This document shows, piece after piece, positions 20,895 to 39,149 of a stretch of DNA of 39,913 nt. The number at the start of each line of letters is the position of its first letter. Position 1 is the first letter of the stretch. The translations under genes and the position numbers were made by a program. Under the pieces are notes generated by a model, which had not been told where the DNA came from, made no database searches, and saw only the letters and a list, made by a program, of their open reading frames with translations. The stretch comes from Pseudomonadota bacterium (GTDB taxonomy: Bacteria; Bdellovibrionota; FAC87; UBA2466), in assembly GCA_043718025.1 (NCBI GenBank), contig JAYSWN010000044.1, forward strand, positions 1 through 39,913, read 5' to 3'.

Positions 20895-21075
20895 GGTTGT
20901 TTTCTCCTTAATAGAAAGGTCGAGATTCTAACCCTGGCGGGACGGCGAAGCGAGGAGAAACGTGGTAGCCCCTGACAAGATTTTATGTACGCAAAGAGCC
21001 ACCTTGAAAGACGCCGATTGCTAGACTCTAGCGGTCACATCAAGTAGACCCTTAAGACTTGATGAGGTGGGTCCG

Positions 21076-21873
21076 ATGCGGCGATGTTTTTTTAGGTTTC
21101 TCTCGGTACTTTGTTTTCTTTTTTCTGTTGCTTCGTTCAGCGCTGATTTTAGCCTTGAAGGGCTGATTGCCGAGGTAGCGAGTTTAGCTCCGAACGAGCG
21201 GCAGGCCTACATCGTCTCGGTTCTGGCTAGAGAGCCTTCTGCAGAGGCGCGCCGTAACATTCTTAGTTGGGCGTTGCGTGAGCCCGACGAATGGATGTTA
21301 CCGCTTTTAGTAGCTCAGATTTCCAAAGCGCTTATCCCGCCCCAGGTGGATCAGCCTGAGGAATACAAAATTCGGTTGGTAAGGGCCCTCGAGTATCTAG
21401 CTTTGAACCCACCGGTTGATCCAAAGTATACTTGCGACATGGTTAGTATTCTGGAGCAAGTTGCGTTGGAGCATAGGGGGTTAACGTCGACAGAGGCAAT
21501 GCTTACTGCAGGTATTGCCATTCGTTTCGATCCGGCCAACCGCTTAAAATCCAACCCTGGACTGAAATGGGCAACCTACGCCTTGTTGGGGGGACCGGCC
21601 GTACCCGGAACGCTTCCTTTCCACGAAGACGCAATGCTTGGAGTTGTGGAACTCATCGATCGAGTAAGAAACACTAAGGGCGGAAGCGAATGGATCGCCC
21701 TCGCCCAACGGGTGGTTAAAAGCCGTGGTACCGAAGACCCTGTCGGCCGAGCCGCCCAGAACATTTTGCAGCATCCCGACGTTTGTATCCGCCAAATCCG
21801 TAATTCAAACCGGCCCTCTATTTCCGCTTCTTTAAACAATCCGTGGTTAAAATATTTATTAGCTAAGCCTTAA
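21076..21873 (+). CDS. Hypothetical secreted protein, predicted alpha-helical
   Basis: GAGGT ribosome-binding site at 21064-21068 ahead of ATG 21076; signal-peptide-like N-terminus (MRRCFFRFLSVLCFLFSVASFSA); fills the gap between yceI and the acyl-CoA dehydrogenase. Confidence 0.7.
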   Translation: MRRCFFRFLSVLCFLFSVASFSADFSLEGLIAEVASLAPNERQAYIVSVLAREPSAEARRNILSWALREPDEWMLPLLVAQISKALIPPQVDQPEEYKIRLVRALEYLALNPPVDPKYTCDMVSILEQVALEHRGLTSTEAMLTAGIAIRFDPANRLKSNPGLKWATYALLGGPAVPGTLPFHEDAMLGVVELIDRVRNTKGGSEWIALAQRVVKSRGTEDPVGRAAQNILQHPDVCIRQIRNSNRPSISASLNNPWLKYLLAKP

Positions 21874-24073: not shown

Positions 24074-24150
24074 TGGTGGGCTGTGTAGGGATCGAACCTA
24101 CGACCTCGAGCTTCGGAGGCTCGCGCTCTATCCAACTGAGCTAACAGCCC
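24074..24150 (-). tRNA. tRNA-Arg(CCG)
   Basis: GGGCTGTTAGCTCAGTTGGATAGAGCGCGAGCCT-CCG-AAGCTCGAGGTCGTAGGTTCGATCCCTACACAGCCCACCA; 77 nt, complete cloverleaf, encoded CCA. Confidence 0.97.
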
Positions 24151-24236: not shown

Positions 24237-25337
24237 TTAGATCGGCTCATTGGCGACAAAACGCGAATAAAAGCTCTGAACTCTCTGACGGGCAACCGCG
24301 TACTGAATTGCCTGAAGAGCGCTGTCCTTTAAAAAAAAGCGGGCGCTGAGCATGAGCGACCACCCTTTTCCGCCAAAAGGGAACAAACGTTCTGGAGGCA
24401 TCATGGCGGTCAAGGCCGTTCGCCGGTGAAAAGCAACGCGTTCGGTAAGACTATCGATAACAAAACGGGGCACCGGCGTTCCCCACTTTTGCAGCACCGA
24501 AAACAGAAACCAAAAAGCGGCATTGGAACAACGGGCATTAATTTCTTTAAGCACCCGCGGCCACCCAAAGTGAGGTTCATTTGCAATTTTTTCAATTAGA
24601 AAATGAATATCGTTCAACCACAACGGTGACTCCAAAAGATGCTGCACCACCGCGTGGCCACCCAAATACAAAAGCTGATCTTCGTAGCTCAGCACCCGCG
24701 CTTCTCCCGGCCAGCCTTCGAAACCTTGGAGAGAACGCTTCCAAAAATCTTTCATCGTTCCCGCGCTATCGCCCTTAAGCAAAAAACTGTGCAGCTCGAT
24801 AACCGGCCGCCCCTCCCCACGCGACATTTCGACCCGAAAACGGCCTGGGTAGTTTACCCCGATAGACTTAAAGCCGCGTTGTTCAAGTCGGCCCATTGCC
24901 TTTGAAAAATCTCGCGGCTTGACCAATAAATCAACGTCCGCCATCGGTCGAAAGATGCGCTCAGGGTACAATCGACGGCCCACGTCCATGCCCTTCAACA
25001 CGATGACCCCCAGCGAAGCGTTGGCTAATGTCTGCAGGGCCTCTTCCATCTCCCAATCTAATAACGCCAGCGCCATGCGCTCGCGGGCTTGGCGCTCAGC
25101 AAAAATCTGACTAACGGTGGAGGGGAGTTGTTTGGCCCATAAGGCGCGTTGAATGACGAGGAGAAAAGGCAGGGCGCAGTGCAGTCTTTGCGCGTAGGCA
25201 TAAGCCGATTCCCAGGTCTCCGCCTCTTTCAAAAACGGCGGCGGAATTTCCAAGGCGCAATAGAATGAGCGCGGATTTAGCGCTTCAAGAACCCACTCCT
25301 GCACCACCCGCCTTAATGACAAAGCCTTCGTAACCAT
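24237..25337 (-). CDS. Nucleotidyltransferase family protein (NTP_transf_5-like)
   Basis: VIVLKG..V...YP....RPMADVDLLV, IELH, EDQLLYL..H, WLNDI. The start is uncertain; ATG 25337 was chosen to minimise overlap with the upstream gene. Confidence 0.88.
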   Translation of the reverse strand: MVTKALSLRRVVQEWVLEALNPRSFYCALEIPPPFLKEAETWESAYAYAQRLHCALPFLLVIQRALWAKQLPSTVSQIFAERQARERMALALLDWEMEEALQTLANASLGVIVLKGMDVGRRLYPERIFRPMADVDLLVKPRDFSKAMGRLEQRGFKSIGVNYPGRFRVEMSRGEGRPVIELHSFLLKGDSAGTMKDFWKRSLQGFEGWPGEARVLSYEDQLLYLGGHAVVQHLLESPLWLNDIHFLIEKIANEPHFGWPRVLKEINARCSNAAFWFLFSVLQKWGTPVPRFVIDSLTERVAFHRRTALTAMMPPERLFPFGGKGWSLMLSARFFLKDSALQAIQYAVARQRVQSFYSRFVANEPI

Positions 25338-25747
25338 GCAAGCCCCCTGGTCGCCCGACGGCAAAAGGCCGCTTGGTATTTTTCCGTATCCACGGTGCGC
25401 AGAGAGCAATAGGCAATCCACCGGTCTAATGCCCGACACTGCCACTTCATTTCGCGGCCGTTTTCTTCGCGACGAAACGCCACGACCCGCCCCCAGAGTT
25501 CGGCGGCGCTAAAACTTTCGGCGATTAAAGAAGCGTCGCCCTTAACCATCCACGAATTTTTTTTAAGCGAAGGGGTGCTGACCACCCGGTGCAACACCCA
25601 AGTGCCCTCGCTATTTCGGCAAAGCACCAACTCACCAAGGCGTGGCGCAGAGTGAGCGTCTTCTTGCTTTAGCCATTCCACTCCTACCCAGTTTCCTGAA
25701 TCGAGAAAAGGGCGCATGCTGCTTCCGTGTAATGAGATCCAATCCAC
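25313..25747 (-). CDS. S24/S26 (signal peptidase I-like) peptidase without N-terminal anchor
   Basis: GSSMRPFL (catalytic Ser box), GELVL, VLHRVV (His base), KGDA, ELWGRVV. Confidence 0.82.
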   Translation of the reverse strand: MDWISLHGSSMRPFLDSGNWVGVEWLKQEDAHSAPRLGELVLCRNSEGTWVLHRVVSTPSLKKNSWMVKGDASLIAESFSAAELWGRVVAFRREENGREMKWQCRALDRWIAYCSLRTVDTEKYQAAFCRRATRGLAWLRRLCH

Positions 25748-25755
25748 GATTTAGC

Positions 25756-25938
25756 TTATGATTTGAGTTTAGCGGCACCACAAAAATCCGGGGCTCCGGT
25801 GCTCGCCTTTCGCCCGCCCGTGGCGACGCCATTGCAAAGAGCCGCCACTGTGGTTAGGGATTCGGTTTTTACCGTAGGCTTGTGGTATTCGAGTTTAGTT
25901 GCCGCCGGCGCGTGCGGCTCTTTTTTATCTGATGACAT
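25756..25938 (-). CDS. Putative RiPP precursor peptide, 60 aa
   Basis: MSSDKKEPHAPAATKLEYHKPTVKTESLTTVAALCNGVATGGRKASTGAPDFCGAAKLKS. GGGGGAG Shine-Dalgarno ahead of ATG 25938; start overlaps the kinase 3' end; YxxP leader motif; sits inside a PqqD/rSAM locus. Confidence 0.85.
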   Translation of the reverse strand: MSSDKKEPHAPAATKLEYHKPTVKTESLTTVAALCNGVATGGRKASTGAPDFCGAAKLKS

Positions 25939-26866
25939 GCGTTTCTCCCCCAAGCTTGTGATTATAGGCCAAAGACGGATTGGCCGACAATAGCCGCCAG
26001 AATCCAAAGTCTTTCTCAAACCTAAGTTTTTTAATTCCGCACGGCGACAAAACCAGTTTAGTCGCCAAGTCAAAACGCTCTTCGCACAGGCGCGAAAAAT
26101 CAGGCGTCATGGCGCTGGCCAAAAGTGCCCGCACCGCCTCAGCCTTACCCATCGCTTCGACGGCGTGATGGGTGGCTTGTTGCAACGCGCAGAGACGATT
26201 TAACAAAATCTTTTTCCGCGGCGGGGCCAAGCGGGAGTAACCGCTGCCAAGCGGTGCCGAATGAAGCCAGGCGTTTTCGCCGTCAAAGCCGATAATTCCG
26301 GCGTCGTCGCCTAAGATAGCCGCGTCAGAAAGGTTCGCGGCCACCAAAGCTACGCTGGTCGACTTACCCGCGCCGCTTTGGCCAAAAAACAGGTACCCCT
26401 GATCGCGGTGCACAAAACTGGCGGAATGCATGAGAAAGCACTGCGCTTGCAACAACAAGTCGGGCAATACCCAGCGAAGCAAGTTGTGAGTGGCGTCGCC
26501 AACTTCTTGCAAATTGATGAAGGCAGCGACCCTTAGGGGATCACCCTGGCGCTGAATGCGACGGGCCGCAAAATCTCGCTGAACCACGCTATCGCCGCGA
26601 GATTCAAATTCGGGATCTTCATCGTGCCAAATATTAGAGTGGGGCACGCCGGTTAGCGGTTCTACAAAAATTTCGGCGGCCACCGGACCGGTATCCCGGT
26701 ATTCGTGAAAATAGCCTTCCCACTCTTTTCGCAACTCGTCCGAATGCGTCGAAAGCGTAAACCGAACTCCAGCAACGTTAATGGTGAGTGGTCTAGGCGC
26801 CAGGGCAAAAATGCCGGGTATTGGTATCTGCGAAAGGTGATGAAATAGATAAGCGCGGCGCTGCAT
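25925..26866 (-). CDS. HPr kinase-like P-loop protein (peptide kinase candidate)
   Basis: LMHSASF, Walker A FGQSGAGKSTS and ILGDDAGII: the His / P-loop / DD arrangement of HprK/PEPCK-type kinases. Confidence 0.85.
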   Translation of the reverse strand: MQRRAYLFHHLSQIPIPGIFALAPRPLTINVAGVRFTLSTHSDELRKEWEGYFHEYRDTGPVAAEIFVEPLTGVPHSNIWHDEDPEFESRGDSVVQRDFAARRIQRQGDPLRVAAFINLQEVGDATHNLLRWVLPDLLLQAQCFLMHSASFVHRDQGYLFFGQSGAGKSTSVALVAANLSDAAILGDDAGIIGFDGENAWLHSAPLGSGYSRLAPPRKKILLNRLCALQQATHHAVEAMGKAEAVRALLASAMTPDFSRLCEERFDLATKLVLSPCGIKKLRFEKDFGFWRLLSANPSLAYNHKLGGETHVIR

Positions 26867-26986
26867 TTTGGAACCCCGAGTATATAGCCATCAACCGCGC
26901 TAGAACACCGCTTTGCGTTGCGGCATTTAGCCCAAACGCCATTACCCGGTTGCCCATAAAAATTCTGTCTGTTTAAATTGACGTCT

Positions 26987-27253
26987 ATGATCCCAAAACG
27001 TCCCCTCAACCTGCCTTGGCGTGAAGTGGATGGCCACGTGGTGATTTTATCGCCCAAGACCTCGACCATTCATGAACTCAATTCTGTAGCGAGTTTCTTG
27101 TGGATCGCGGCCGATGGGTTAAAGAGCAATCACGAATTGGCGGACGCACTCACCGAACGGTTTGCGGTGGAGCCAGCAACCGCGATGAAAGACGCCGATT
27201 TTTTTTTTAGCGAATTAAAGACGCTGGGTTTAATTTCACTCCACGAGGCTTGA
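26987..27253 (+). CDS. PqqD family protein / RiPP recognition element (RRE)
   Basis: WREVDGHVVIL....IHELNSVASFLW...DG......LADALTERFAV.....KD...F..EL...GLI; TGATG overlap with the rSAM gene. Confidence 0.93.
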   Translation: MIPKRPLNLPWREVDGHVVILSPKTSTIHELNSVASFLWIAADGLKSNHELADALTERFAVEPATAMKDADFFFSELKTLGLISLHEA

Positions 27254-28281
27254 TGTCCATCGTCAACCACTGGCGCGATAAGTTTTCGCAAAACTTAATT
27301 CCCATGCAGGTGACATTTGAACTCACCTACCACTGCAATGAACGGTGCAGTCACTGTTACCTCTCCACTTTTGACGATAGAACCGACGGGCGCCCGACCC
27401 TCACCCTCACCGAATGGAAGGGTATCTTAGATCAACTGGCCCATGCGCGGGCACTCTATTTGGTGTTGATCGGTGGCGAAGCCATGATGCACCCGCAGTT
27501 TTGGCAAATTGCTGAATACGCATCGCAAAAAAACTTTGCGCAAAGCCTAATCACCAATGGACTGCTACTCGATGAAGCGGCGGCAGAAAAACTTGCCGCC
27601 AACAGTTTTTATCAAGTCACGGTCAGCTTTTATTCCTTAGACGCCAAGGTGCACGACAAAATGACCCGCCGAGCGGGCTCGCACGCCAAGACCCTGGCGG
27701 CCATCGGTTTATTGAAGAGAAAAGGGCTGCAGGTGGGAATCAACTGTCTGCTCACCCGTGAAAGTATTGGCGGCAGTTTTGCGCTTAAGGAGTGGGCCGA
27801 GGCCCAAGGCATTCCCATTTCATTTGATCCCATGGTGACGGCAAAAATTGATTCTTCACTGGGCTCCACCGGCGAGCGGGCAACCCCAGAGCAGCTGAAA
27901 TGGTATTACCGTGAATTAAAGAACCGGGGGGCCGGCCCGAAACCGCAAACCGAGGTCGATCCGAATGCGGTGATCTGCAACGCCGGTCGCGGAAAATGCG
28001 CGGTGAACCCGTACGGTGATCTGCTCACTTGTTTAGAAGTGCGCGAACCGATCGGTAATCTGCGAAAGCACACTTTCGATGAACTCTGGCGCTCGCCCCA
28101 AGCCGAAAAACTGCGCGGCTACCGCAACCGCGATCTCAAATTTGACTCATCGTGCGACACCGGCGCCTTTTGCGATCACTGCCCGGGAATGGCCGGAAGT
28201 GAGACCGGAGATCGCATGGCACCCGTCCCCTTTTTGATGGAATTGGCCCAGATAAAACGTGAAGTTTTCGAAGAAATTTAA
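27253..28281 (+). CDS. Radical SAM/SPASM-domain peptide maturase
   Basis: ELTYHCNERCSHCY (CxxxCxxC), LIGGEA, ITNG; C-terminal CNAGRGKCAVNPYGDLLTC, IGNL..FDELW and CDTGAFCDHCPG. Confidence 0.93.
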   Translation: MSIVNHWRDKFSQNLIPMQVTFELTYHCNERCSHCYLSTFDDRTDGRPTLTLTEWKGILDQLAHARALYLVLIGGEAMMHPQFWQIAEYASQKNFAQSLITNGLLLDEAAAEKLAANSFYQVTVSFYSLDAKVHDKMTRRAGSHAKTLAAIGLLKRKGLQVGINCLLTRESIGGSFALKEWAEAQGIPISFDPMVTAKIDSSLGSTGERATPEQLKWYYRELKNRGAGPKPQTEVDPNAVICNAGRGKCAVNPYGDLLTCLEVREPIGNLRKHTFDELWRSPQAEKLRGYRNRDLKFDSSCDTGAFCDHCPGMAGSETGDRMAPVPFLMELAQIKREVFEEI

Positions 28282-28504: not shown

Positions 28505-31500
28505 TTGAAGAAGAACGGTTCAAAAATTTGGCGTTTCATTTACGCGCTGTGTCTGCTCGCTTTTTTTATAGGCACCAACCAGGCAAACGGGGCCTGCACG
28601 CTTGGAACCGATAGCTGCTGTTTGAGCACCGGTGGTCCAAGCGATAACGCGGCCACTCAATACATTTGGGAACCGAACACTCCCTATTCTGGACTTTGGA
28701 ATTGGTACAACCACTGGCGCGTGCAAGCCGATCCCAACAGCATCCCCGACGGAAAATCGGGAGGCACCGCCTGTGGTGGCACGACCACTCAGTGTTTGGG
28801 TACCGCCGGCGCGGTGGTCGCGGGATCTGCCGCGAACGAATACGCCTACATCCAATCCGACTGGCGAATTCCCGCCTACCCCGTAAACAACTACACGCTT
28901 TCGTGCCTTAAGATCGCTTCGGGCACCATGACCACCGCCAATGGGGTGACCATCACCATTAACTCGCCCGCGGTAGTTACCGTCGACGGCGCCGGCACCG
29001 GCGCGAGCCAGGGCCACATGTACGCGGTGAATACCCCAATTCGTTTCTACACCACCGGGGCACTGCCGACTGGCCTGACCGCGGGAACTCTTTACTTCGT
29101 TCAGTCAGTTCCCGCCGCGAACACCTTTACCGTTTCCGCCACGTCCGGGGGAGCGGCGATCAATACCAGCGGAAGCCAATCCGGCGCACACCGTGTGACC
29201 CAAGTGGCCACGACCACGATCACCATCCCCACCAACGCCACGGTAACGACTCCGATCACGGGAAAATCGACGACGAGCATTTCGATTCCAACCCCCGCCA
29301 CCGTAACTCAGGTGGATAGCTCGGTGACCAGCGCGTTTGCCGCATCGGCAGCGGCGGTGACAATTTCGGTAACCAGTGGCACTCGCTACGTGCAGTACAG
29401 TAACAGCGGCTTGTTGGTAAACGATGCCGTGATGTTCACGGCCGGCACTCTGCCCTCGCCACTTGCCTCAAATACGGCGTACTACGTAAAAGCGGTGAAT
29501 GGCGCCGGAACGGATCGCTTTACCCTAACCGACAGCCCGGGTGGACCCGTTATTACCATTGCCGCGGACGCCACGGGCCTTACGCTGCACCGAAGTGCAA
29601 TCACGTTCGCTGGTCACGGCCTTTCGGCGGGTGACCCGGTAGTCTTCGCCACCTCCCGCGCCCCGATGACCGCGGGCACCATTTATTACGTTTCAGCCGA
29701 CTTACCACCGACAACTAACCTTTTCGATATCTCCACCACCCCCGGGGGAACCCACCTGACGATCACCGGAACGGGCAATAGCGTTATGACCCGCCAAGCC
29801 GTCCGTTGGCCAAGTCACGGCTTAGTTGCCGATGCACCGGTGCAATTTACGGGGGGCACCCTTGCCGCCGGACTCACCGCCAGCACGGTCTATTATGTAG
29901 TAGGGGCAGCCGCCGGCATTGCCGGCCCGGCGACAAACTCCTTTTCGGTTAGCGCTACGATAGGCGGCGCACCGATCGTAACCACGGCCGATAGCAGCCC
30001 CACGGTTACCGGATTTCAGCCAAGTACTTTTTCGTACACCGCCCACGGCATGGCGGCCGGAGCGCCGGTCAACTTCACCACTACCGGCACGCTGCCTACC
30101 GGCCTCACCGCCGGAACCATTTACTACGTGGCCGCCACCCCTGCTCCGTTGACCGATAGTTTTTATATTGCGGCCGCCCCGGGCGGAGCAGTGATTCGGG
30201 CAACGGCGGCCGGCACCGGCACTCACACCGCGAACAAGCCGGGCGTTGTAAACTGGGCGACGCACGGTCTGCCGGCCGGCACGGCCGTTCTCTTTTCCGG
30301 TGGAACTCTCCCGTCTGAAATCACGGCGAATGCCCTTTACTACGTACTGGCCACTCCCACGATTCAGGCCGGAAGTTTTTCTATCGGCACGACGGCCGGC
30401 GGAACCGCGATCCCCTTCACCGGCAGCACCGCCGCCACGATCACCGGCAAACAGCCGGGTGTGGTCACGTTAAACGCGCACAATCTTTCCGCCGGCTACC
30501 CAGTGATTTTTAGCACTTCTGGGGCACTCCCCACCGGTTTAACCGCGGGAACCACTTACTACGTTGCCAGTTTTCCCGCGCCCACCGCAAACACCTTTGC
30601 CGTTTCGGCGACCGCCGGGGGGGCCCCCATCGCCACCACGGGCACGCAATCCCCAACGCACACCCTGTCCACCGTGATGACCATTGCGGCCGAGTTTTTT
30701 AGCAATCCAAATTCAGGTTCGCTCACCACCACCAATCAGTTTCTTCTCAATATGGCCGGTGCGGCGGAACAGACTTTAACCAACGTGGACCCCATCAATC
30801 ATTTAAATATCTCTAATAACACCACCGTTAATCTTACCGACAATTTTACCGTCAGCGATAACTTCACCATCGCCGATGGAACCGGTATCGTAAAAATCAA
30901 CAACAGTCTGCTGATTTCAAAATCAACCACCCCGGTTACGATTCCCGCCAGCGCAACGCTTGAAATTCAGAGCGACGCCATCTTCACCGCTTTGGGTGGT
31001 GTCGTCGTCAACGGCGTTCTGAAAGTGAAAGCGGGAGGAACCCTGCTCATAGGTAACGGCAAGACCCTACAGGTGAACGCCGGGGGCGTTCTCCAGCTCA
31101 TTGGTAACTCGGGCGCCGTCGCCAAAATTGACGCCGTCGATGGTGGTTCTACTTACATCTTGAATGTGGCCGGCTCAGTTAACGCCAACTACTTTTCGAT
31201 CAGCCGCACGACGGCGCCCGGCCTCAACATCACCACCGCGGGTTCAGACTCAATCCAAACTCTTTCAAACGGCGAGTTTCACTACTTAGCCTCCGGCGGA
31301 TACGCGGTCACGCTCAACACCGCCAAAGACGTTCCCACCTCACCAAACCCAAGTGGCCTGGGCTTCTTTGACGATTTTGCCTACGCCAATACTAAGAATT
31401 TTAATGCAACTAACTACACCGGCGTAGCGTTCACCGTAAGCCAATGGTCGGGCCTGGGAAACACGGCCTACGAACTCGACCCGTCCTCCAAAGTAGGTTG

Positions 31501-34500
31501 GGGAACTCAAGCCCCCGTGGCACTCCAAGTGACCAATGCCTCCGCTTCGGGCAGCCCACCCGCAACGATTGGCCGCAACTCGGCAGAAACGCTCTTTGCT
31601 ACATTTGGCTTTTCTCTAAATGGTTCCGGCACCGCAACGGATATCACCTCGGTGACTTTTACCCTGGGCGGAAACAATACGGCATCGGACGTTCAGTACG
31701 GGCGAGTGTATCGTGACACCAACGCTAACTGCCAATACGATCCGGGCGTGGACTTGCAAGTAGGATCCGATCTCTACTTCAACAACTACCCGGGCATCGC
31801 CACGGTAACCATTCCGGCAACCCAATTATCGGTCAACAGCACCACTTCCAAGTGCCTTCACGTCACCCTGGCGACAAGCCTCAATGCCCACATAAGCTCG
31901 ACGATACAGTTAAAAATTGCCGGTACCGCAGATGTGACCAACTCGCAAGCCTACGCTTTCTCAAGCGCCAGCGGCCCACCGGTACAAGGCGGTACCTCTA
32001 CCGTAGTCGTGGGCGGCTCCTCCATTAAAGTTTGGAACGGGGGAAACGGAACGGCTGCGGCAGCCCAAAACTGGAACGCAAATGTTACGGACTGGACGCC
32101 CAGCGGAGTGCCCGGGGCAAGCGGTACCGACGACTGCCAGATTGGTCCCGCTTATTCTTACTTGCAACTGAACGCCAACTACAGCTGCCTTAACGTAAAT
32201 CTTCCTAACAACGGAAAAATGTCTTTTAGCCCCACGACGAATACGTTCACCGTTTTGGGTGCCCTCACTATCGGTTCGTCTTACACCTTTGCTACTTCGG
32301 GAAACTTCACTTTCGCTTCGACCGTAGCCAATCAAAGCATCACCGCAAACACTGCTTTTCCCGGTAACGTTACCATCAACAATACGTTCAACTCAGGGGC
32401 CGGGATTGTTTCGGTAGACAGTGATTTTACCGTTGGCGGCGACCTGACGCTGACGTCGGGAGTGCTTCGGGTGACTGCGGGCAACACCCTCTACGTAAAC
32501 GGCAACATCAACGTAAATGGCGGAACCCTAAAGATCGAACCCGGGGCCTCCGTGGTTTTAGGCGATGGAAAAACGCTAACCGTAGGCGCCTCCGGAACTC
32601 TTGAGATGGTGGGAAGCTCGGCGCAAAACTCCAATTTCACCTGTGCCGGTACGACCACCGGTTGCGCGGTTACGGTAAACGGCACCATCAAAGCTCAATA
32701 CTATTCTTTCAGTAAATTGGCGGTCAGCGGCGTTACGATCAACTCGGGCGCCACCATTGACCCTACCTACTATCTACAAAATGGGGCGTTCACTTTTCCG
32801 GTGGGCACCAACCCCGTCCTGCTTACTCTCAATCGACAAGTGCCCAGCACCACCTGGAATTCGATGGTTTTCGATAAAAACGGATCCTCCGCTACGGGGG
32901 CAAAATCGATCGTCACTACGGCTACGGCTTCACCAAATCCGTCCCTCACCATCAATAACTACAGCGGCGATCTTACCGGCAATGCCTTCACGACCGATAT
33001 TCCCTACGACATCATTTGGGCGATACCCACTACGACATTAAAAATTACGACGGAAGACTTAGTTTCGACTTCGTGGTCAGCTACGGTCACCATTTCGGGT
33101 GCGGCAACGCCAGCCGTAGTCACTTGGGCGTCGCACGCGCTAGCGGCCGGAACGCAAGTTAGTTTTACTACCACGAACGCTTTGCCAACCGGGTTGTCGC
33201 CCTTAACGGCTTACTACGTGGCCGCCTCACCGGCGCCCACCGCCACTACTTTTTCAGTGGCGGCGACGGCAGGCGGAGCGGCGATCAACACCACCGCCGC
33301 CGGATTGGGCATTCAAACCGCCACACCTGCCCCTATTTCCGATGTAGCGTCTCCGGCGGTAATTGCTTGGAAATCTCATGCGCTAACCGCAGGAGCTCAG
33401 GTCACTTTTACGACTAACGGCACGTTGCCCACGGGTTTAGCTACCGCCACCATTTATTATGTTGCGAGCTCACCGGCACCCACCGCGAACACCTTTTCGG
33501 TGTCGACCACCTCCGGAGGCGCAGCCCTCAACACCACGGTTGCCGGCACGGGAACCCACGCCGCTAACTCTACGGCCAACAATGCGAATCAGGGCGATAC
33601 CTCGGTGCGCGCCGGGTGGTTTGGGTTTCAAGAGACTACGGCCGGAACTTTTGCGAACACCGATCTGACATCGATCAAGATCACCTTAGACGGTACTGGC
33701 GCTTCTTCCGACGTTTCGAGTGCTCGCTTGTATTACGATTCTACATGCGCCGGTTCGGGCGGCACCTTTGTGGGAACCGCCCAAACTTTTTCGGGCAGTC
33801 CGGCCACCATTACGTTTGGAAGTTTGACCGGCGTTACGGTGCAATCAGACGTAACCTCCCCGCCAAAACGATGCGTCTACGTTGAATACGACGTGGCCTC
33901 CGCCGCCACCTCCGGCGCCACCGTAATCGCAAAAATTCAGGCCAACGGCGATGTCGTCAATTCTCAAACCTACGCCTTTAATGGCTCGTTCTCGCCGCCT
34001 AAAAATGGCCGTACGATCGCGGTAGTGGGCAACACCACCACTTGGGTAGGCACCACTTCGACCGATTGGTTTACCGCCACCAACTGGAGTCCACCCCTGG
34101 TTCCCACTTCGGCCAAAAACTGCATCATCAATGATGTTACCAACGACCCCGTCATCAACGCCGCCGGAGCAGTCTGTAAATCTCTCACCATCGGTAACGG
34201 TATTCTTACGATCAATAGCGGCCGCAATTTAGATGTATTTGGATCATTGACCAACACCGGCACGATAAGCCAAGCCGCCTCGTCGTCCACCATCACCATT
34301 AAAGATGGCGGAACGATCACTAACCAAACACTACAGAGTTCGTCGGCGCTAAACTACTTGGTTTTCGATAAAACGGCGGGCGGTTACGTCTACATCGGAA
34401 ACCAAAACCTAACGATCAACAACTTCACGATTGGTAGCGGCAAGAATTTTATCTTCAACGTACGTGCCGGCGATACGCTCACCTTACCAAACGGGGCAAC

Positions 34501-37500
34501 CCTTTCCTCCGCCACTTTCCAAGTGGATGGGGATGGCACGGTGGCCGTGGGCAGCGGCCAAACTTTTCTCGTTAACGGAGCTACCGTCAAAGCCAACGGC
34601 ACCAACGATGGCTGTATCACCTCTTATCCCGGCACTACCTGCATGGCGGGTAAGGCTCTGTTCACGCGCAGCGGGGGATCGGGCACTTGGTCTTTCCAAA
34701 CCACCTCCGGGGTGGTCGATTTTACGGGTTGGACGGTTGAATGGATGGATTGCAACGGCATGCAAATTGGCGGCACCACGCAAGTCACTAACTTTAATGG
34801 CGGGCAAATTCGCAACATGCCGACGGGTTGTGGAACGTTCTACGGACTGCAGCTCAATAACTCAGGGGGACTTCCTTCGACCGCCGACTACGTTGGTTTC
34901 AATTGGGGGCCGAACAACACGCCATTGGCCCCGGGTACCGCTTACAATCTAATTCGCTCCACCGGCTGCAATGCCAATACGATGAGTTTCACCAATTGGT
35001 TCGGTGATTTTTCTGTTGCGCTAGATCAACCCGTCCCGTCGACCAAGATCACCACTTCCAACTGCACCATCAACATGACCGCTGCGGCCTCGCTGGTCGC
35101 GTTGACCGAAATCTTCAAGGCAACGCCTTTCAACGCGTTGGTTCGCCTCACTTGGACCACCGGTTTGGAATCGCTGCACCAGGGGTTCAACGTTTATCGC
35201 AGCACCTCGCCTGACTCAGGCTACGCGCAAATAAATGGCTCGCTGATCCGTAACCCCGTCCAGGGAGGATCGATTCACGGCAGTTATGACTTCCGCGATT
35301 CCGGGGTGACCAATAACGTAACTTACTACTATCGCCTCGAAGACATCGCTACCAATGGAGTGCGGACCATCCACGGTCCAGTAGCCGCCACTCCCAAGGC
35401 TGCACTCGGCGCGGCTCCCGCTCCCACGGGTAACGCGGTGGTGGCCGGCAATGCGTCCGGAAGTGGAACCCCGGCTTCCGATGAGTCAACGCCCGGGATT
35501 CTCAACCTGGCCCCCGGCGTAAGCCAGCTCGCCAAAACAAAAAATTCACTCCGCCTGCGCATCGAGATACCCGCGGTGGTTCGCGCCGCTTCGGAGGTTG
35601 GTGGTTATGAGCAATTGAGCATTGAAGGCTACGCCACATCGACTGAGGCAGGAAAGCCTGAACTTCCTGAGCGCGCCCTATTGATTGAAGTGCCGCGTTC
35701 AGAAGTGGCCACCTTTGCCGAAGTCTCGCGGACTTCGAACACCTTAAACACGCTTAATGTCGTACCGGCCAAGACTTATAGTGTTGATAGCAACGGTAAC
35801 CTAGTCTCCTCGCGCGCCCCAGACGGCACGTTCTACGCCACCAACGCGGCGCTGCCGGCTTCGCCAATTGAAATCAAAGACATCATCGAAAACCAAGGGC
35901 TTTTTTACTTACCGATTATCGTAAAACCGATTCGCTACAACCCGGTAAACCAGCAAGCCACCGCCCTGACGCAAATCACGTTTGACGTCCATTTTTCGGG
36001 AAGCCCGAATTGGAACATTGGTTCACCGGTGAGCGAAAGCGGGGCCTGGGGTTACGAAGGCTCGCTTAAGATTCATATTAAAAAATCGGGCCTCTATAAG
36101 CTGCGCTACTCCGATCTCGTTAACGCCGGAGTAGACGGCCCGTTTGTGGGAGCCAATACGAGCAAGCTTCGCCTTTTTTCGGGCAGCGGCGAAATGCCGA
36201 TGCAAATCACCAGCGCCGACACCACTTTTAACGACGGCGACGAAATCCGTTTCTTTGCCCCCTATTTCAGTTCGGTTGAGTCCGATCGCAACTCGCTAGT
36301 TCTCTACGTTGATACCGTGGACGGTTTGCGCATGGATTCAATGGTAGCCACGCCCAGCGGCAATGCCAGCACGCAGGCGAGCTACGCTCGACGTTTCGAG
36401 ATAAAAAGCTCTCAATACGCCTTATTTAGCGACCCAGTGGGTGCGGGGGCGGAGCACATCTATTGGAGTTACCACTATTTTTCGGCCGCCCAGAATAGCG
36501 GGTCGCCCGACTTTAACACCGACCTAAACCTTCCGGGGCTGGTGAATAGCGGCACCGTCCGAATCCGACTATCGCTAAAGGGGAGTCGCGGTGGACAGCT
36601 TCAAAATCCGATCCATCACCTAAAAGTTTACGTAAACGGATCTTTCAGCGACTCAGGTGATGCTGAATTCCAAACCAATGAACCTTACTCAGTGCAGTTC
36701 GATATTCCGGCCTCCCAGTTTATTGAAGGCCGCAATAGCATCCGAGTGCGCGTAATGGGTGATCGAACCGGAAACGATTTTGATCGCGTGAACTTCGAAA
36801 AGCTTTCGGTGGAGTATCCGCACCGCTGGTCAGTAGAATCGGGAGTGGCGGAGGTGCTCAACTATAAGGCCGGAAAAGACATCATGCTGGATGGTCTCAC
36901 TAGCGGTACCGTTTCTGTTTACGACATCACGACGGTGGATGACGTGGTTCGCCTCACCGGCTTTGGAATTTCACAAGACAACGGCAATTTCGCGGTATCG
37001 TTTGCCACGGCCTCGGGAGATCCGTCGCTCGGACGCCGACTACAAGTGGTGGCCGATAGCGCCGTACTCTTACCCTGGGCGCTGGAGCTTAACCCCGGTT
37101 CGAACCTTAAAGCCACCAACCAAGGCGCCGATGTGCTTTACATTGGCCCACGTCGATTGATGAGCCCGGTGGCACGTTTGGCGGCACAACGCCGCGACGA
37201 TGGTTTCCGTACGGCGCTGGTGACCACCGAAGATATCTACTCAGAGTTTGGAAATGGCATTCGCTCGCCGCAAGCGATCAAAGATTTTATTGCGTACGCC
37301 TACGCCAACTGGCAATCGCCGGCTCCAAAATACGTGGTGCTGATCGGCGATGCTTCGTACGATCCCAAAAACCAATTGGGTTACGGTTTGGCTTCGGGAG
37401 TTCCAGTCTACCTAAATAAAGGTGTCTACGCTGACTACGGCGACGACCACTTCTACGCCTCATTGGTTAGCGGTAGCGACGTCCCCCTTGTTTCTTTAGG

Positions 37501-38461
37501 TCGAATTCCGGGTAACAATGCGAGCGACATTGGCCTGTACGTCTCAAAAGTGCTGGCCTACGAAAATGGCAGCGCCCGCCCGACCGGAGCCGCCCAAGCC
37601 CGCTTAACCGTAATTAGCGATACCGATCTCAATGGCGGCGAGCAGTTTGATGCCAAGATTGATCGCTTGGCGGCGCTGATTCCCCAGCTGTGGAACCCAC
37701 TGATTACGATTAATCAATTAAAGCGGAGTCAACTCGGCGATGCAAATTTGAAAGCGGGAATTCTCGACGCCTTTAATTCTGGTTCGTTACTTATTCATTT
37801 CTTAGGTCATGGGGCGGAAGATCGATGGGCTGACTCAGCGGTATTCTGGAAAGCGGATGCCGAGGCATTGACCAACACTCAGCTACCCATCGTCGTCGCC
37901 ATGAACTGCTTGAATGGCTACTTCTACGACGCGGATCCGACGGTGAAGAGTTTAACCGATAGCTTATTGTTCAACGCTAACGGCGGCGCGGTGGCGATGT
38001 TTGCCTCGACTTCGCTCACCTCACCCGAACTACAGGTTCCGATGCAAGATGCGCTATACGAGTACTTGGCCAAAAACCCAGGCAGCCGACTGGGCGACGC
38101 CGTTCGAATTGCCAAAGTGCAGTCAGGCATCAATGCGGGTACCGCCGAAGTGATTCGATCGTGGACGTTGTTCGGCGATCCGATGTTGCGGGTAAATGTT
38201 CCCATCAAGACCACGGCCTCGCTCGCTGTCCCGGTGGTTTCGGATGCGAAGGTGGCGGAGAGCACCGGTAGTTTAGCCGGATCTTCTTGCGCCAGCATTC
38301 GCGACCACGGCAGAAAAATGGGCCGTCCCGGCTGGGGCGCCTTCGCCGAGATCATGATTATGCTATTTGCAATCGTGGGCGGACGATTGATGATGCGCCA
38401 AGCGGCGGTTGTAAAAGTTCGCAGGTCACCTTTGCTTAAAGGGCAACGTCGGTCGAAATAG
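28505..38461 (+). CDS. Giant (3318 aa) secreted/surface repeat protein with C-terminal C25 (gingipain/PorU-like) cysteine peptidase domain
   Basis: GAGGT SD plus TTG start; signal peptide; Thr/Gly/Ala-rich repeats; FN3-like domain (LTWTT..E...GFNVYRS...YDFRD....TYYYRLEDI); C25 propeptide-like GKPELP; C25 motifs EDIYSEFG.G..SP.AIK.F, YVVLIGDASYDPK, LGRIP, FLGHG (His codon 37808), AMNCLNGYF (Cys codon 37907), LFGDP; C-terminal TM segment. Confidence 0.9.
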   Translation: MKKNGSKIWRFIYALCLLAFFIGTNQANGACTLGTDSCCLSTGGPSDNAATQYIWEPNTPYSGLWNWYNHWRVQADPNSIPDGKSGGTACGGTTTQCLGTAGAVVAGSAANEYAYIQSDWRIPAYPVNNYTLSCLKIASGTMTTANGVTITINSPAVVTVDGAGTGASQGHMYAVNTPIRFYTTGALPTGLTAGTLYFVQSVPAANTFTVSATSGGAAINTSGSQSGAHRVTQVATTTITIPTNATVTTPITGKSTTSISIPTPATVTQVDSSVTSAFAASAAAVTISVTSGTRYVQYSNSGLLVNDAVMFTAGTLPSPLASNTAYYVKAVNGAGTDRFTLTDSPGGPVITIAADATGLTLHRSAITFAGHGLSAGDPVVFATSRAPMTAGTIYYVSADLPPTTNLFDISTTPGGTHLTITGTGNSVMTRQAVRWPSHGLVADAPVQFTGGTLAAGLTASTVYYVVGAAAGIAGPATNSFSVSATIGGAPIVTTADSSPTVTGFQPSTFSYTAHGMAAGAPVNFTTTGTLPTGLTAGTIYYVAATPAPLTDSFYIAAAPGGAVIRATAAGTGTHTANKPGVVNWATHGLPAGTAVLFSGGTLPSEITANALYYVLATPTIQAGSFSIGTTAGGTAIPFTGSTAATITGKQPGVVTLNAHNLSAGYPVIFSTSGALPTGLTAGTTYYVASFPAPTANTFAVSATAGGAPIATTGTQSPTHTLSTVMTIAAEFFSNPNSGSLTTTNQFLLNMAGAAEQTLTNVDPINHLNISNNTTVNLTDNFTVSDNFTIADGTGIVKINNSLLISKSTTPVTIPASATLEIQSDAIFTALGGVVVNGVLKVKAGGTLLIGNGKTLQVNAGGVLQLIGNSGAVAKIDAVDGGSTYILNVAGSVNANYFSISRTTAPGLNITTAGSDSIQTLSNGEFHYLASGGYAVTLNTAKDVPTSPNPSGLGFFDDFAYANTKNFNATNYTGVAFTVSQWSGLGNTAYELDPSSKVGWGTQAPVALQVTNASASGSPPATIGRNSAETLFATFGFSLNGSGTATDITSVTFTLGGNNTASDVQYGRVYRDTNANCQYDPGVDLQVGSDLYFNNYPGIATVTIPATQLSVNSTTSKCLHVTLATSLNAHISSTIQLKIAGTADVTNSQAYAFSSASGPPVQGGTSTVVVGGSSIKVWNGGNGTAAAAQNWNANVTDWTPSGVPGASGTDDCQIGPAYSYLQLNANYSCLNVNLPNNGKMSFSPTTNTFTVLGALTIGSSYTFATSGNFTFASTVANQSITANTAFPGNVTINNTFNSGAGIVSVDSDFTVGGDLTLTSGVLRVTAGNTLYVNGNINVNGGTLKIEPGASVVLGDGKTLTVGASGTLEMVGSSAQNSNFTCAGTTTGCAVTVNGTIKAQYYSFSKLAVSGVTINSGATIDPTYYLQNGAFTFPVGTNPVLLTLNRQVPSTTWNSMVFDKNGSSATGAKSIVTTATASPNPSLTINNYSGDLTGNAFTTDIPYDIIWAIPTTTLKITTEDLVSTSWSATVTISGAATPAVVTWASHALAAGTQVSFTTTNALPTGLSPLTAYYVAASPAPTATTFSVAATAGGAAINTTAAGLGIQTATPAPISDVASPAVIAWKSHALTAGAQVTFTTNGTLPTGLATATIYYVASSPAPTANTFSVSTTSGGAALNTTVAGTGTHAANSTANNANQGDTSVRAGWFGFQETTAGTFANTDLTSIKITLDGTGASSDVSSARLYYDSTCAGSGGTFVGTAQTFSGSPATITFGSLTGVTVQSDVTSPPKRCVYVEYDVASAATSGATVIAKIQANGDVVNSQTYAFNGSFSPPKNGRTIAVVGNTTTWVGTTSTDWFTATNWSPPLVPTSAKNCIINDVTNDPVINAAGAVCKSLTIGNGILTINSGRNLDVFGSLTNTGTISQAASSSTITIKDGGTITNQTLQSSSALNYLVFDKTAGGYVYIGNQNLTINNFTIGSGKNFIFNVRAGDTLTLPNGATLSSATFQVDGDGTVAVGSGQTFLVNGATVKANGTNDGCITSYPGTTCMAGKALFTRSGGSGTWSFQTTSGVVDFTGWTVEWMDCNGMQIGGTTQVTNFNGGQIRNMPTGCGTFYGLQLNNSGGLPSTADYVGFNWGPNNTPLAPGTAYNLIRSTGCNANTMSFTNWFGDFSVALDQPVPSTKITTSNCTINMTAAASLVALTEIFKATPFNALVRLTWTTGLESLHQGFNVYRSTSPDSGYAQINGSLIRNPVQGGSIHGSYDFRDSGVTNNVTYYYRLEDIATNGVRTIHGPVAATPKAALGAAPAPTGNAVVAGNASGSGTPASDESTPGILNLAPGVSQLAKTKNSLRLRIEIPAVVRAASEVGGYEQLSIEGYATSTEAGKPELPERALLIEVPRSEVATFAEVSRTSNTLNTLNVVPAKTYSVDSNGNLVSSRAPDGTFYATNAALPASPIEIKDIIENQGLFYLPIIVKPIRYNPVNQQATALTQITFDVHFSGSPNWNIGSPVSESGAWGYEGSLKIHIKKSGLYKLRYSDLVNAGVDGPFVGANTSKLRLFSGSGEMPMQITSADTTFNDGDEIRFFAPYFSSVESDRNSLVLYVDTVDGLRMDSMVATPSGNASTQASYARRFEIKSSQYALFSDPVGAGAEHIYWSYHYFSAAQNSGSPDFNTDLNLPGLVNSGTVRIRLSLKGSRGGQLQNPIHHLKVYVNGSFSDSGDAEFQTNEPYSVQFDIPASQFIEGRNSIRVRVMGDRTGNDFDRVNFEKLSVEYPHRWSVESGVAEVLNYKAGKDIMLDGLTSGTVSVYDITTVDDVVRLTGFGISQDNGNFAVSFATASGDPSLGRRLQVVADSAVLLPWALELNPGSNLKATNQGADVLYIGPRRLMSPVARLAAQRRDDGFRTALVTTEDIYSEFGNGIRSPQAIKDFIAYAYANWQSPAPKYVVLIGDASYDPKNQLGYGLASGVPVYLNKGVYADYGDDHFYASLVSGSDVPLVSLGRIPGNNASDIGLYVSKVLAYENGSARPTGAAQARLTVISDTDLNGGEQFDAKIDRLAALIPQLWNPLITINQLKRSQLGDANLKAGILDAFNSGSLLIHFLGHGAEDRWADSAVFWKADAEALTNTQLPIVVAMNCLNGYFYDADPTVKSLTDSLLFNANGGAVAMFASTSLTSPELQVPMQDALYEYLAKNPGSRLGDAVRIAKVQSGINAGTAEVIRSWTLFGDPMLRVNVPIKTTASLAVPVVSDAKVAESTGSLAGSSCASIRDHGRKMGRPGWGAFAEIMIMLFAIVGGRLMMRQAAVVKVRRSPLLKGQRRSK

Positions 38462-39149
38462 TATAGTCAGACTTACCTTCCACTACTTTATAACTGTCGA
38501 CGTCATTCATGCCCCATTTTACGGCCAAGGCGTCGTAAATTTTTATCCAGCGTGAGTCGTTACCCTTGTCCTGCGCTTGAGAGTAGGTTTCTCCCCCTCC
38601 CCACGCTTTTAGAAACGTCGGAAGGTCGTGCGCGCCATTGGCGTTGACGCGGCGGGCGCCACTGGCCACTTTAAATCCGGCCGCGAGCCAATCGCCGGTG
38701 TGCGTAGCGCCGTAGCAGGCGGTGGAATTTAAGGCGCGAAGCTTGGTGGCTGAACCCGCAATGGCGGTTACGGCGGCGCGCACGTCTTTCATCGAAATTG
38801 CGCCTTCGTAAAAAGTGAGCGCCCCTTCATTGCCATGAACGTTGATGTAGGTATCGATGGCCATAGTTTCGACGCTGGCCACTTCGGCTTTAAGCGCGGC
38901 GAAAAAATTTTTGCTCGTGGCCTGGGCTCCGTTGAGCACGACCACTTTTCGGTACATAGGCTTGATTCTATTTTTGGTCTCCGCCAATCCTGCTGCCTCA
39001 ATCAAGTCATAGACCTGCTTTTTATCGGACGCGGCGTGAGTCGCCAGCTCAATCACCACCACCGCCACTCGGCCCGTGCGATCGACGGCCGCGTGCGCGC
39101 CTCCGCATAGAATTGTTGCCGCTAATGATCCAAAAATAACTGCTTTCAT
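38436..39149 (-). CDS. Secreted hypothetical protein, possible clan CD (caspase/CHAT-like) fold
   Basis: Signal peptide ending AHA; IDTYINVHG and LRALNSTACYG motifs; stop overlaps the giant gene's 3' end by 26 bp. Confidence 0.7.
   Translation of the reverse strand: MKAVIFGSLAATILCGGAHAAVDRTGRVAVVVIELATHAASDKKQVYDLIEAAGLAETKNRIKPMYRKVVVLNGAQATSKNFFAALKAEVASVETMAIDTYINVHGNEGALTFYEGAISMKDVRAAVTAIAGSATKLRALNSTACYGATHTGDWLAAGFKVASGARRVNANGAHDLPTFLKAWGGGETYSQAQDKGNDSRWIKIYDALAVKWGMNDVDSYKVVEGKSDYTISTDVAL

Follow-up and report, generated by a model that had tools for sequence, protein, structure and literature searches.

A two-cysteine precursor peptide from Bdellovibrionota, encoded with a radical SAM enzyme and an HprK-like kinase, suggests a phosphopeptide-type RiPP pathway

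Introduction

In the pathway of the linear polyphosphorylated peptides (LPP; LppA/K/B/S/D/N; Popov et al. 2026, PMC13381572), the precursor LppA carries a YxxP leader whose Tyr and Pro are held by residues N33, V35, D70 and F74 of LppB, with the Tyr at -16 and a Phe at -3 relative to the cleavage site. LppK acts on core Ser3 and does not accept Thr, and LppS, a SipW-type peptidase (triad S29/H68/D93), removes the RRE-presented YxxP leader. Among the phosphorylated lasso peptides, the kinases PadeK, ThcoK, SyanK and PsmK phosphorylate a C-terminal Ser (PMC9266682, PMC6993621), whereas BsfK acts on core Ser3 and accepts Thr (PMC10368454). A His-Lys-Asp-Asp set is required in lasso kinases (PMC9266682, PMC10368454); the catalytic set of BsfK is given as H148/G163/K169/D186/D187, and the leader Tyr in lasso geometry is placed at -17 (PMC10368454). 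In pseudomycoidin, PsmN, modelled on ANT structures, is needed for a hexose on the phosphate (PMC6993621). The discussion of PMC13381572 states that the roles and final products of LPP and paeninodin are unknown.

Sacti- and ranthipeptide enzymes form a further group. NxxcB uses an Asn acceptor and tolerates Asp, and for NxxcB and the sactisynthases the described mechanism includes a free Fe site for the peptide thiol (PMC9389541). SynChlorMet (ScmC-F) and HprK-related A/B are sets of HprK-like, PqqD and rSAM/SPASM proteins defined by bioinformatics in NCBIfam models; among open-access papers, we found no literature on SynChlorMet. A search of open-access papers gave no description of a cassette joining a radical SAM enzyme, a kinase and an S26 peptidase, and the accessible parts of PMC13692751 and PMC10352776 concern other systems.

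Here we analyse a 39,913-nucleotide stretch of bacterial DNA from the phylum Bdellovibrionota, hereafter the window, for which an earlier note made from the letters alone had proposed a 60-residue precursor peptide with an RRE-binding leader and a two-Cys core modified by a SPASM enzyme. Our favoured reading is that the precursor would be bound by the RRE, crosslinked through one or more Cys thioethers, phosphorylated at Ser60, trimmed by the S26 peptidase to 26-27 residues and exported to the surface; taken jointly, we give these steps a probability of roughly 0.5.

Results

The precursor gene

25756..25938, minus strand: precursor peptide gene, 60 aa (translation, homologs, conservation, codon-position differences)
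25945..25951, minus strand: Shine-Dalgarno-like GGGGGAG (sequence)
25961..25990, minus strand: weak, chance-level sigma70-like promoter match, TTGTCG-18-TATAAT, ending at 25961

Translation of the precursor gene returned the peptide quoted in the earlier note, with Y18, P21, C35, N36, D51, F52 and C53 at the quoted positions. The note had chosen ATG 25938 as a start supported by a Shine-Dalgarno sequence, and GGGGGAG indeed stands 6 nt 5' of this codon. The ORF lies within a 105-aa frame that opens at TTG 26073. We rejected this longer start, whose 45-residue extension is dispensable because some homologs sit in open frames of no more than 51-56 aa. The kinase gene, with its stop codon, runs 14 nt into the precursor ORF, and the S26 peptidase gene begins 9 nt past the precursor stop.

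A database search with the single sequence gave 12 homologs (E 5e-18 to 5e-8), a profile search gave 117 matches, and a search of 50%-identity representatives gave 79, of which 5 are long unrelated proteins. The family set comprises 224 distinct sequences, with 5 long proteins left out, and a tighter set comprises 155 cores, with 1 unparsed peptide left out; L089, a different multi-rSAM peptide, and L090, a spurious match, are excluded from all family counts. Against 36 ungapped homologs, the differences at codon positions 1, 2 and 3 are 0.375, 0.27 and 0.664, and the invariant residues are each encoded by several synonymous codons, the last Ser by both TCN and AGY. By its conservation and synteny, with most variation at the third codon position and invariant residues in synonymous codons, 25756-25938 is almost certainly a genuine coding gene that belongs with the cassette. 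It is extremely improbable that the ORF arose by chance or forms only the end of a 105-aa protein: the precursor matches no family in Pfam or NCBIfam, as a chance frame might, but the homologous loci contain the similar peptides on which the earlier note had made its case depend, 224 distinct ones in strict linkage to the cassette and with third-position substitution bias, and the short homolog frames speak against a tail.

No paralogous precursor was found in its own genome by tblastn or profile, and no relative was found in viral contigs; a plasmid search gave one weak kinase match. A dedicated sigma70 promoter was rejected. The match upstream of the precursor is weak because the scan found 2 sigma70-like sites against 3.0 expected and because the TTGTCG-18-TATAAT site is not kept in 5 aligned relatives.

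Organisation and distribution of the cassette

25925..26866, minus strand: HprK-like peptide kinase, 313 aa, invariant H147, G162, K168, D187 and D188
25313..25747, minus strand: S26 (SipW/SEC11-type) peptidase, 144 aa, without N-terminal membrane anchor, invariant S10, H53 and D71
24237..25445, minus strand: NTP_transf_5 nucleotidyltransferase, likely start ATG 25334, invariant DxD
26978..27253, plus strand: PqqD-type RRE, 91 aa, N35, V37, D72 and F76 kept
27250..28281, plus strand: radical SAM/SPASM enzyme, 343 aa, CxxxCxxC and six C-terminal Cys (243, 250, 261, 302, 308, 311)
28505..38461, plus strand: giant C25 (gingipain/PorU-like) protein, 3318 aa, His/Cys motifs intact, hydrophobic and basic C-terminal tail, associated partner

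On the minus strand the genes for kinase, precursor, S26 peptidase and nucleotidyltransferase follow one another, and those for the RRE, the radical SAM enzyme and the C25 protein run divergently on the plus strand. Of the 401 genomes sampled from the phylum, 49 gave a match to the peptide profile at E<=0.01, and inspection left 48 with family members, about one in eight; G162 contains another peptide in a three-rSAM locus, and a second match in G293 is spurious. Of 12 titled records containing relatives, 10 are Bdellovibrionota/Oligoflexia MAGs. The kinase was matched at E<=3.2e-21 in all 48 peptide genomes and in only 2 others, both at a contig end. Among 54 peptide loci, some of them cut by contig ends, the kinase is present in 53, the radical SAM enzyme in 51, the nucleotidyltransferase in 48, the S26 peptidase in 47, the RRE in 45 (an undercount from single-query BLAST) and the giant C25 protein in 31. 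Gene order is freely shuffled among loci, as would be expected if function rather than descent as a single block keeps the genes together, and the cassette is patchy within its own family (3/33).

An ABC-2 permease was found at 25 of the 54 loci with a profile built from these loci, and the orthologue in the window's own genome lies off-locus on contig C78 (E 2.7e-61). Glycosyltransferase and sugar-nucleotide genes are other frequent neighbours, and divergent loci contain a methyltransferase; the family scan covered 140 of 167 flanking ORFs. A tRNA-Arg(CCG) gene (24074-24150, minus strand) lies directly 3' of the nucleotidyltransferase gene, and the cassette, whose genes have a GC close to that of the genome, may be a tRNA-inserted island. 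Two other ORFs of the window, 21067-21873 (plus strand, 268 aa) and 38436-39149 (minus strand, 237 aa), have no match in NCBIfam or Pfam.

Conserved residues of the precursor

25759..25839, minus strand: predicted core, residues 34-60, conserved C35, N36, G37, R43, K44, C53, L58 and terminal S60

The earlier note had called for a homolog search for invariant core residues. Besides the leader YxxP, this search brings out Cys35, Gly37, Lys44, Cys53 and a terminal Ser/Thr. Both Cys of the note are invariant, and 221 of the 224 peptides have exactly two core Cys. A Lys lies between the two Cys in 221/221, compared with 1.2% Lys elsewhere, and in 150/155 cores it stands 9 residues after Cys35. The position following Cys35 is Asn in 204/221, replaced in 17 and in 4 of these by Gly, and the next is Gly in 215/221. 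The block C-N-G-x3-G-G-R-K has a fixed length in 150/155 cores, the spacing between Cys35 and Cys53 ranges from 13 to 21 with one of 39, and Cys53 lies 7 (n=178) or 5 (n=39) residues from the end.

The last residue is Ser in 178 peptides, Thr in 43 and neither in 3, of which one looks like a read-through, one looks like a frameshift and one ends in Cys. This terminal Ser/Thr count of 221/224, against 18.6% Ser/Thr elsewhere in the core, is biased upward because Ser-ending peptides were the basis of the profiles used for collection. In the 155-core set the C-terminal residue is Ser/Thr in 155/155, and no internal Ser/Thr column is invariant.

Asp51 and Phe52, which the earlier note had listed among the core residues, turned out to be variable (30/221 and 115/221), and many cores contain no aromatic residue (82/221) or no Asp/Glu (129/221). 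Because these residues are so often absent, the aromatic and Asp options cannot be the family reaction: the aromatic crosslink that had been offered is unlikely, and conservation rules it out at Phe52, as it does a Cys-Asp51 ranthionine. What stands of the earlier reading is the RRE-dependent RiPP precursor with a YxxP leader and two Cys; it had overlooked Lys44 and the terminal Ser/Thr. A covariation of Asn36 with Arg43 was also discarded, for although 4 of 4 Asp36 variants in the 155 cores lack Arg43, 2 of 7 in the wider set keep Arg.

Leader recognition and removal

25840..25938, minus strand: predicted leader, residues 1-33, with a variable Lys-rich N-terminus and then the conserved YxxP block (by LPP geometry)
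25870..25887, minus strand: YxxPxV motif (Y18-P21-V23), predicted RRE-binding (motif role from PMC13381572 and PMC10368454)

With the offset read from the alignment, N35, V37, D72 and F76 of the window's RRE correspond to LppB N33, V35, D70 and F74, and the best solved matches of the RRE profile are lasso and LPP RREs. The motif is conserved and the RRE keeps its Tyr-binding Asp, which agrees with the leader role assigned in the earlier note; the RRE would very probably bind the YxxPxV leader. A complex prediction for the RRE and the peptide scored 0.56, with a best control of 0.00, contact agreement of at least 94% and partner pLDDT of at least 53. The mark for such predictions is reached by 116/157 solved and 2/215 mismatched pairs, among which only 18 of the solved pairs but both mismatches score 0.60 or under; the score gives weak support and may reflect memory of solved RRE-leader complexes.

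The LppA geometry, with Tyr at -16, predicts a cut after Ala33. Residue 31 is F/Y/V/L/I in 131/155 and residue 33 is Ala in 130/155, which fits -3 and -1, and the leader/core split after ...VAA in the earlier note agrees with this geometry (Tyr -16, hydrophobic -3; PMC13381572). Lasso geometry shifts the predicted cut by one residue, so that the core starts at Cys35. S10, H53 and D71 of the S26 peptidase are invariant in 16/16, and its best solved matches are SEC11A/C. By analogy with LppS, the peptidase would likely cut after Ala33 (or Leu34) to give a product of 26-27 residues. The calculated monoisotopic mass of the unmodified core is 2579.30 Da for residues 34-60 and 2466.21 Da for residues 35-60.

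Kinase and nucleotidyltransferase

H147, K168, D187 and D188 of the kinase are invariant in 17/17, and the kinase profile aligns over this motif to a lasso-type kinase of the same phylum with probability 97. Position 3 of the core is Asn36 under LPP geometry or Gly37 under lasso geometry. Because position 3 is Asn or Gly and only the last residue always carries a hydroxyl, we infer Ser60 to be the phosphosite, and the interchange of Ser and Thr at the last residue points to a needed hydroxyl. The kinase would thus probably (poly)phosphorylate the Ser60 hydroxyl. This site is read from conservation, whereas LppK and BsfK use Ser3 instead; also against the terminal step, LppK rejects Thr, yet 43/224 peptides end in Thr. 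As a check, we retrieved 18 distant kinase loci independently of the peptide profile. Six of them have a recognisable leader peptide that stands free (3 rSAM-type and 3 lasso-type), and all of these peptides end in Ser/Thr; the remainder are 3 leader-methyltransferase fusions and 9 loci with no leader recognised.

The earlier reading of the pathway as an RRE/SPASM RiPP holds as far as it goes, but it missed the kinase, the S26 peptidase and the nucleotidyltransferase, and because these are present we read the pathway as phosphopeptide-type.

The nucleotidyltransferase fold is nearest to MenT1, ANT(2'')-Ia and LnuA, and the protein is homologous to the nucleotidyltransferase of a lasso-type locus; its sequence found no relative among solved structures. 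LicD/FKRP-type transfer finds no support in the structure (FKRP rank 50, E 0.033). By analogy with PsmN, there is a little better than an even chance that the enzyme would add a nucleotide or sugar to the Ser60 phosphate; against this step, deletion of LppN was without effect in the LPP study (PMC13381572).

The radical SAM enzyme

In a quick tree the radical SAM family splits into two SPASM clades with 5-6 and 7-8 Cys, and near-identical peptides occur in both. A fold search placed the thioether enzymes 5why (CteB) and 6efn among the nearest, with SuiB ranked 2nd, between them, all at 16-22% identity. The nearest folds listed are the thioether synthase 5why, SuiB, whose chemistry in the comparison is a Lys-Trp C-C bond, and SkfB; the sequence and fold searches thus name no single reaction.

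The near-fixed side chains besides the Cys are Lys44, Asn36 and Arg43. With two invariant Cys and no conserved aromatic residue, the data are most simply read as a Cys thioether. On balance, the enzyme would join the sulfur of Cys35 and/or Cys53 to a carbon of another core residue, for which Lys44 and Asn36 are the best candidate acceptors. Against this step, the fold search does not discriminate, and the Cys spacing of 13-21 is such as a disulfide would allow; the replacements of Asn36, four of them by Gly, count against that residue as the acceptor.

Comparison with described pathways

The cassette shares with LPP the YxxP leader, a discrete RRE with a Tyr/Pro pocket, an HprK-like kinase, a SipW-type Ser/His/Asp leader peptidase, an NTP transferase and frequent polysaccharide-gene neighbours, as described in PMC13381572. 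It differs in the added rSAM/SPASM enzyme (51/54 loci), 'radical' and 'rSAM' occurring 0 times in the main text of that paper, and in its phylum and giant C25 partner. By the descriptions in PMC13381572, a conserved two-Cys core stands here against variable C-termini in LPP, a terminal Ser/Thr against core Ser3 as the LPP phosphoacceptor, which is absent here, and an ABC-2 pair against an MsbA-like exporter; of the LPP leader consensus YxxPxVLxHQxIxFETxxS only YxxP and the hydrophobic -3 are common. The LPP supplement contains one Bdellovibrionales peptidase, as a singleton row with no precursor, and Radical_SAM and Peptidase_C25 only as domain-matrix columns.

The phosphorylated lasso peptides (paeninodin with PadeK/ThcoK, pseudomycoidin, PMC6993621, and Bsf, PMC10368454) share the His-Lys-Asp-Asp kinase and the C-terminal Ser, and pseudomycoidin also a DxD nucleotidyltransferase resembling ANT(2'') (PMC6993621). 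The YxxPx(L/I/V) leader lies 17 residues before Cys35 in 158/221. In contrast to lasso loci, there is no macrolactam cyclase or transglutaminase-like B2 protease at this locus, Asp/Glu occurs at ring positions 7-9 in 1/55 cores only, and there is no Thr at -2; a lasso peptide was therefore rejected. PF13471 has no match in the window's own genome (92% complete), PF00733 matches on other contigs, and neither occurs among 141 scanned flanking proteins.

Sacti- and ranthipeptides (SkfB, CteB, NxxcB, PapB; PMC9389541) share an RRE with a SPASM radical SAM enzyme and an invariant core Cys, and NxxC shares the near-invariant Asn. Apart from the low identity (16-22%), they differ in that the peptides here contain no CX3D/E or NxxC motif, and that the pathways, as described in PMC9389541, run without a kinase, nucleotidyltransferase or S26 peptidase, all of which are present here. 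PapB-type ranthipeptides are set apart by the absence of a conserved Asp/Glu acceptor in our cores, and cyclophane or other aromatic-crosslink RiPPs by the absence of a conserved core aromatic. SynChlorMet has the same HprK-like, PqqD and rSAM/SPASM set but two radical SAM enzymes (ScmE and ScmF) against one here, and all scores fall well short of the curated NCBIfam cut-offs, at 25.7/100 bits for ScmD, 72.5/400 for ScmE, 68.3/400 for ScmF, 27.5/200 for HprK_rel_B and 11.9/200 for HprK_rel_A. Together, by analogy, the pathway would work like LPP with a radical SAM enzyme and a paeninodin-style terminal Ser, while falling outside LPP, lasso peptides and SynChlorMet.

The giant C25 neighbour

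The C25 neighbour matches gingipain R and PorU in its C-terminal domain, where the His and Cys motifs are intact; PorU has a sortase role, named in its NCBIfam description. The neighbour differs from PorU in its 3318-aa length, in scoring 219 bits against a cut-off of 420, and in its hydrophobic, anchor-like tail. In most homologs the C-terminus combines a Gly/Cys motif with a hydrophobic stretch and basic residues. Tails of this kind are labelled sorting tags; no NCBIfam sorting-tag model matched the C25 tails.

C25 domains, for the most part in frames of 500-1000 aa, were found in 127/401 genomes. Among the best 150 of 227 matches, frames of at least 1400 aa occur in 40 genomes, 37 of them with the peptide, and the peptide is carried by 11/361 genomes without a listed giant C25, kin not being independent; 37/48 peptide genomes have a giant C25 among the matches listed. 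The three giant-C25 genomes without the peptide, among these matches, are two fragmented ones of the same genus, of which G003 has the radical SAM gene at a contig start beside a C25 gene, and one with a lasso-type kinase locus. At 10/31 loci the giant gene shares the strand of the peptide and ends less than 100 nt upstream of it, and in G356 the giant gene separates the peptide from the kinase. This co-occurrence and neighbourhood suggest an envelope or cell-surface role for the peptide. Going by gene neighbours, it is an even prospect that the peptide is exported via the ABC-2 permease and acts at the envelope in concert with the giant C25 protein; against the export step, the permease is present at only 25/54 loci and is here on another contig. 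G000:C15 (L023:7800-14903, minus strand) carries another giant C25 paralogue, with about 50% identity and truncated at the contig end; the 7.8 kb downstream of it contain no cassette.

Discussion

The first alternative to be weighed concerns the phosphosite. An internal Ser/Thr (38, 46 or 47) could be the kinase target, the terminal Ser/Thr being kept for recognition by a transporter, a peptidase or the like. LppK and BsfK set the precedent at core Ser3 (PMC13381572, PMC10368454), the cassette has an LppS-like peptidase, and residue 38 is Thr/Ser in 113/155 cores and residue 46 in 121/155. We nevertheless regard this as quite unlikely, since the core has Asn or Gly at position 3 whichever leader geometry is applied, the window's own peptide carries Val38, and solely the last residue always has a hydroxyl in the 155 cores, with Ser and Thr interchanging. 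For the crosslink, one possibility is a disulfide between Cys35 and Cys53, formed once the peptide is exported, together with a non-sulfur modification made in the loop by the radical SAM enzyme, whether a C-C or C-heteroatom link at Asn36, Arg43 or Lys44 or an epimerisation, with kinase, peptidase and nucleotidyltransferase acting as in the favoured model. The constant pair of Cys (221/224) at variable spacing, the fixed C-N-G-x3-G-G-R-K length (150/155) and the second rank of SuiB, a Lys-carbon crosslinker, would all suit a disulfide; however, aromatics, the classic C-C partners, are missing from 82/221 cores, and the Cys counts of both SPASM clades allow a free Fe site, which is not diagnostic. 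We consider the disulfide unlikely.

It is also conceivable, if rather unlikely, that maturation yields a freely diffusing antibiotic or signal and that the closeness of the peptide to giant C25 and glycosyltransferase genes reflects shared envelope islands, not shared function. In line with this, 11/48 peptide genomes have no giant C25 among the matches listed, most C25 genes of the phylum (127/401 genomes) are short and unlinked, and the cassette ends beside the tRNA-Arg gene and is patchy in its own family. On the other side, 37/40 giant-C25 genomes have the peptide against 11/361 others, across about ten families (among the matches listed; kin not independent), and the tight same-strand placement of the giant gene in 10/31 loci and its position in G356 point the same way; the core would also seem much more conserved than expected of an arms-race antibiotic.

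It is tempting to speculate that the peptide is a ribosomally made linker fastening proteins to the sugar coat, although we hold this to be a long shot. Phospho-Ser60 might be joined to a surface polysaccharide via the nucleotidyltransferase, the ring made by the radical SAM enzyme might present the Lys44 amine, and the giant PorU-like C25 protein might transpeptidate cargo, or itself, onto that amine. If true, predatory bacteria would use a RiPP where others use a sortase anchor.

Under the favoured reading, a radical SAM-bearing branch of phosphopeptide RiPPs now has a substrate defined to its 60 residues and a set of five enzymes. The 224 natural variants narrow the chemistry to five residues, Cys35, Asn36, Lys44, Cys53 and Ser60, so that the radical SAM reaction, the kinase site and the nucleotidyltransferase step are directly testable in E. 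coli. In this predatory phylum, the tie to the giant C25 protein speaks for a function at the envelope.

Related loci

Several other loci were seen along the way. L020 and L021 (G016 and G006) contain a second, divergent whole cassette with its own precursor, beside glycosyltransferase and SLBB genes. In the subfamily of L088 (8841-9324) and P0104-P0120 two precursors lie in tandem, their leader is separated from Cys35 by a poly-Gly insert and their last residue is Thr; the locus contains a methyltransferase. L089, L120, L121 and L122 have one to three linked radical SAM enzymes and different three-Cys precursors ending in Ser, with a YxxP leader (e.g. ...AVLSVC...); their kinases are weakly like ScmC/HprK-rel-A.

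Lasso-type precursors of the same phylum, at L127:9343-9453 (plus strand), L133:7437-7622 (plus strand) and L131:9171-9344 (minus strand), end in Ser, Ser and Thr, respectively, and adjoin kinase, RRE, B2 protease and nucleotidyltransferase genes; L133 has a GNAT gene, and no cyclase was seen in that stretch. In three genomes, a YxxPxL leader and a short, lasso-like core are fused at the N-terminus of a PRMT-like methyltransferase (L123:4679-5773, minus strand; L125:4818-5918, minus strand; L130:9744-10886, plus strand; 365-381 aa). The lasso_cyano model matches residues 11-39 of the L123 and L125 fusions below its cut-off, and all three fusions adjoin an Asn-synthase-like cyclase, an RRE, an HprK-like kinase and a nucleotidyltransferase.
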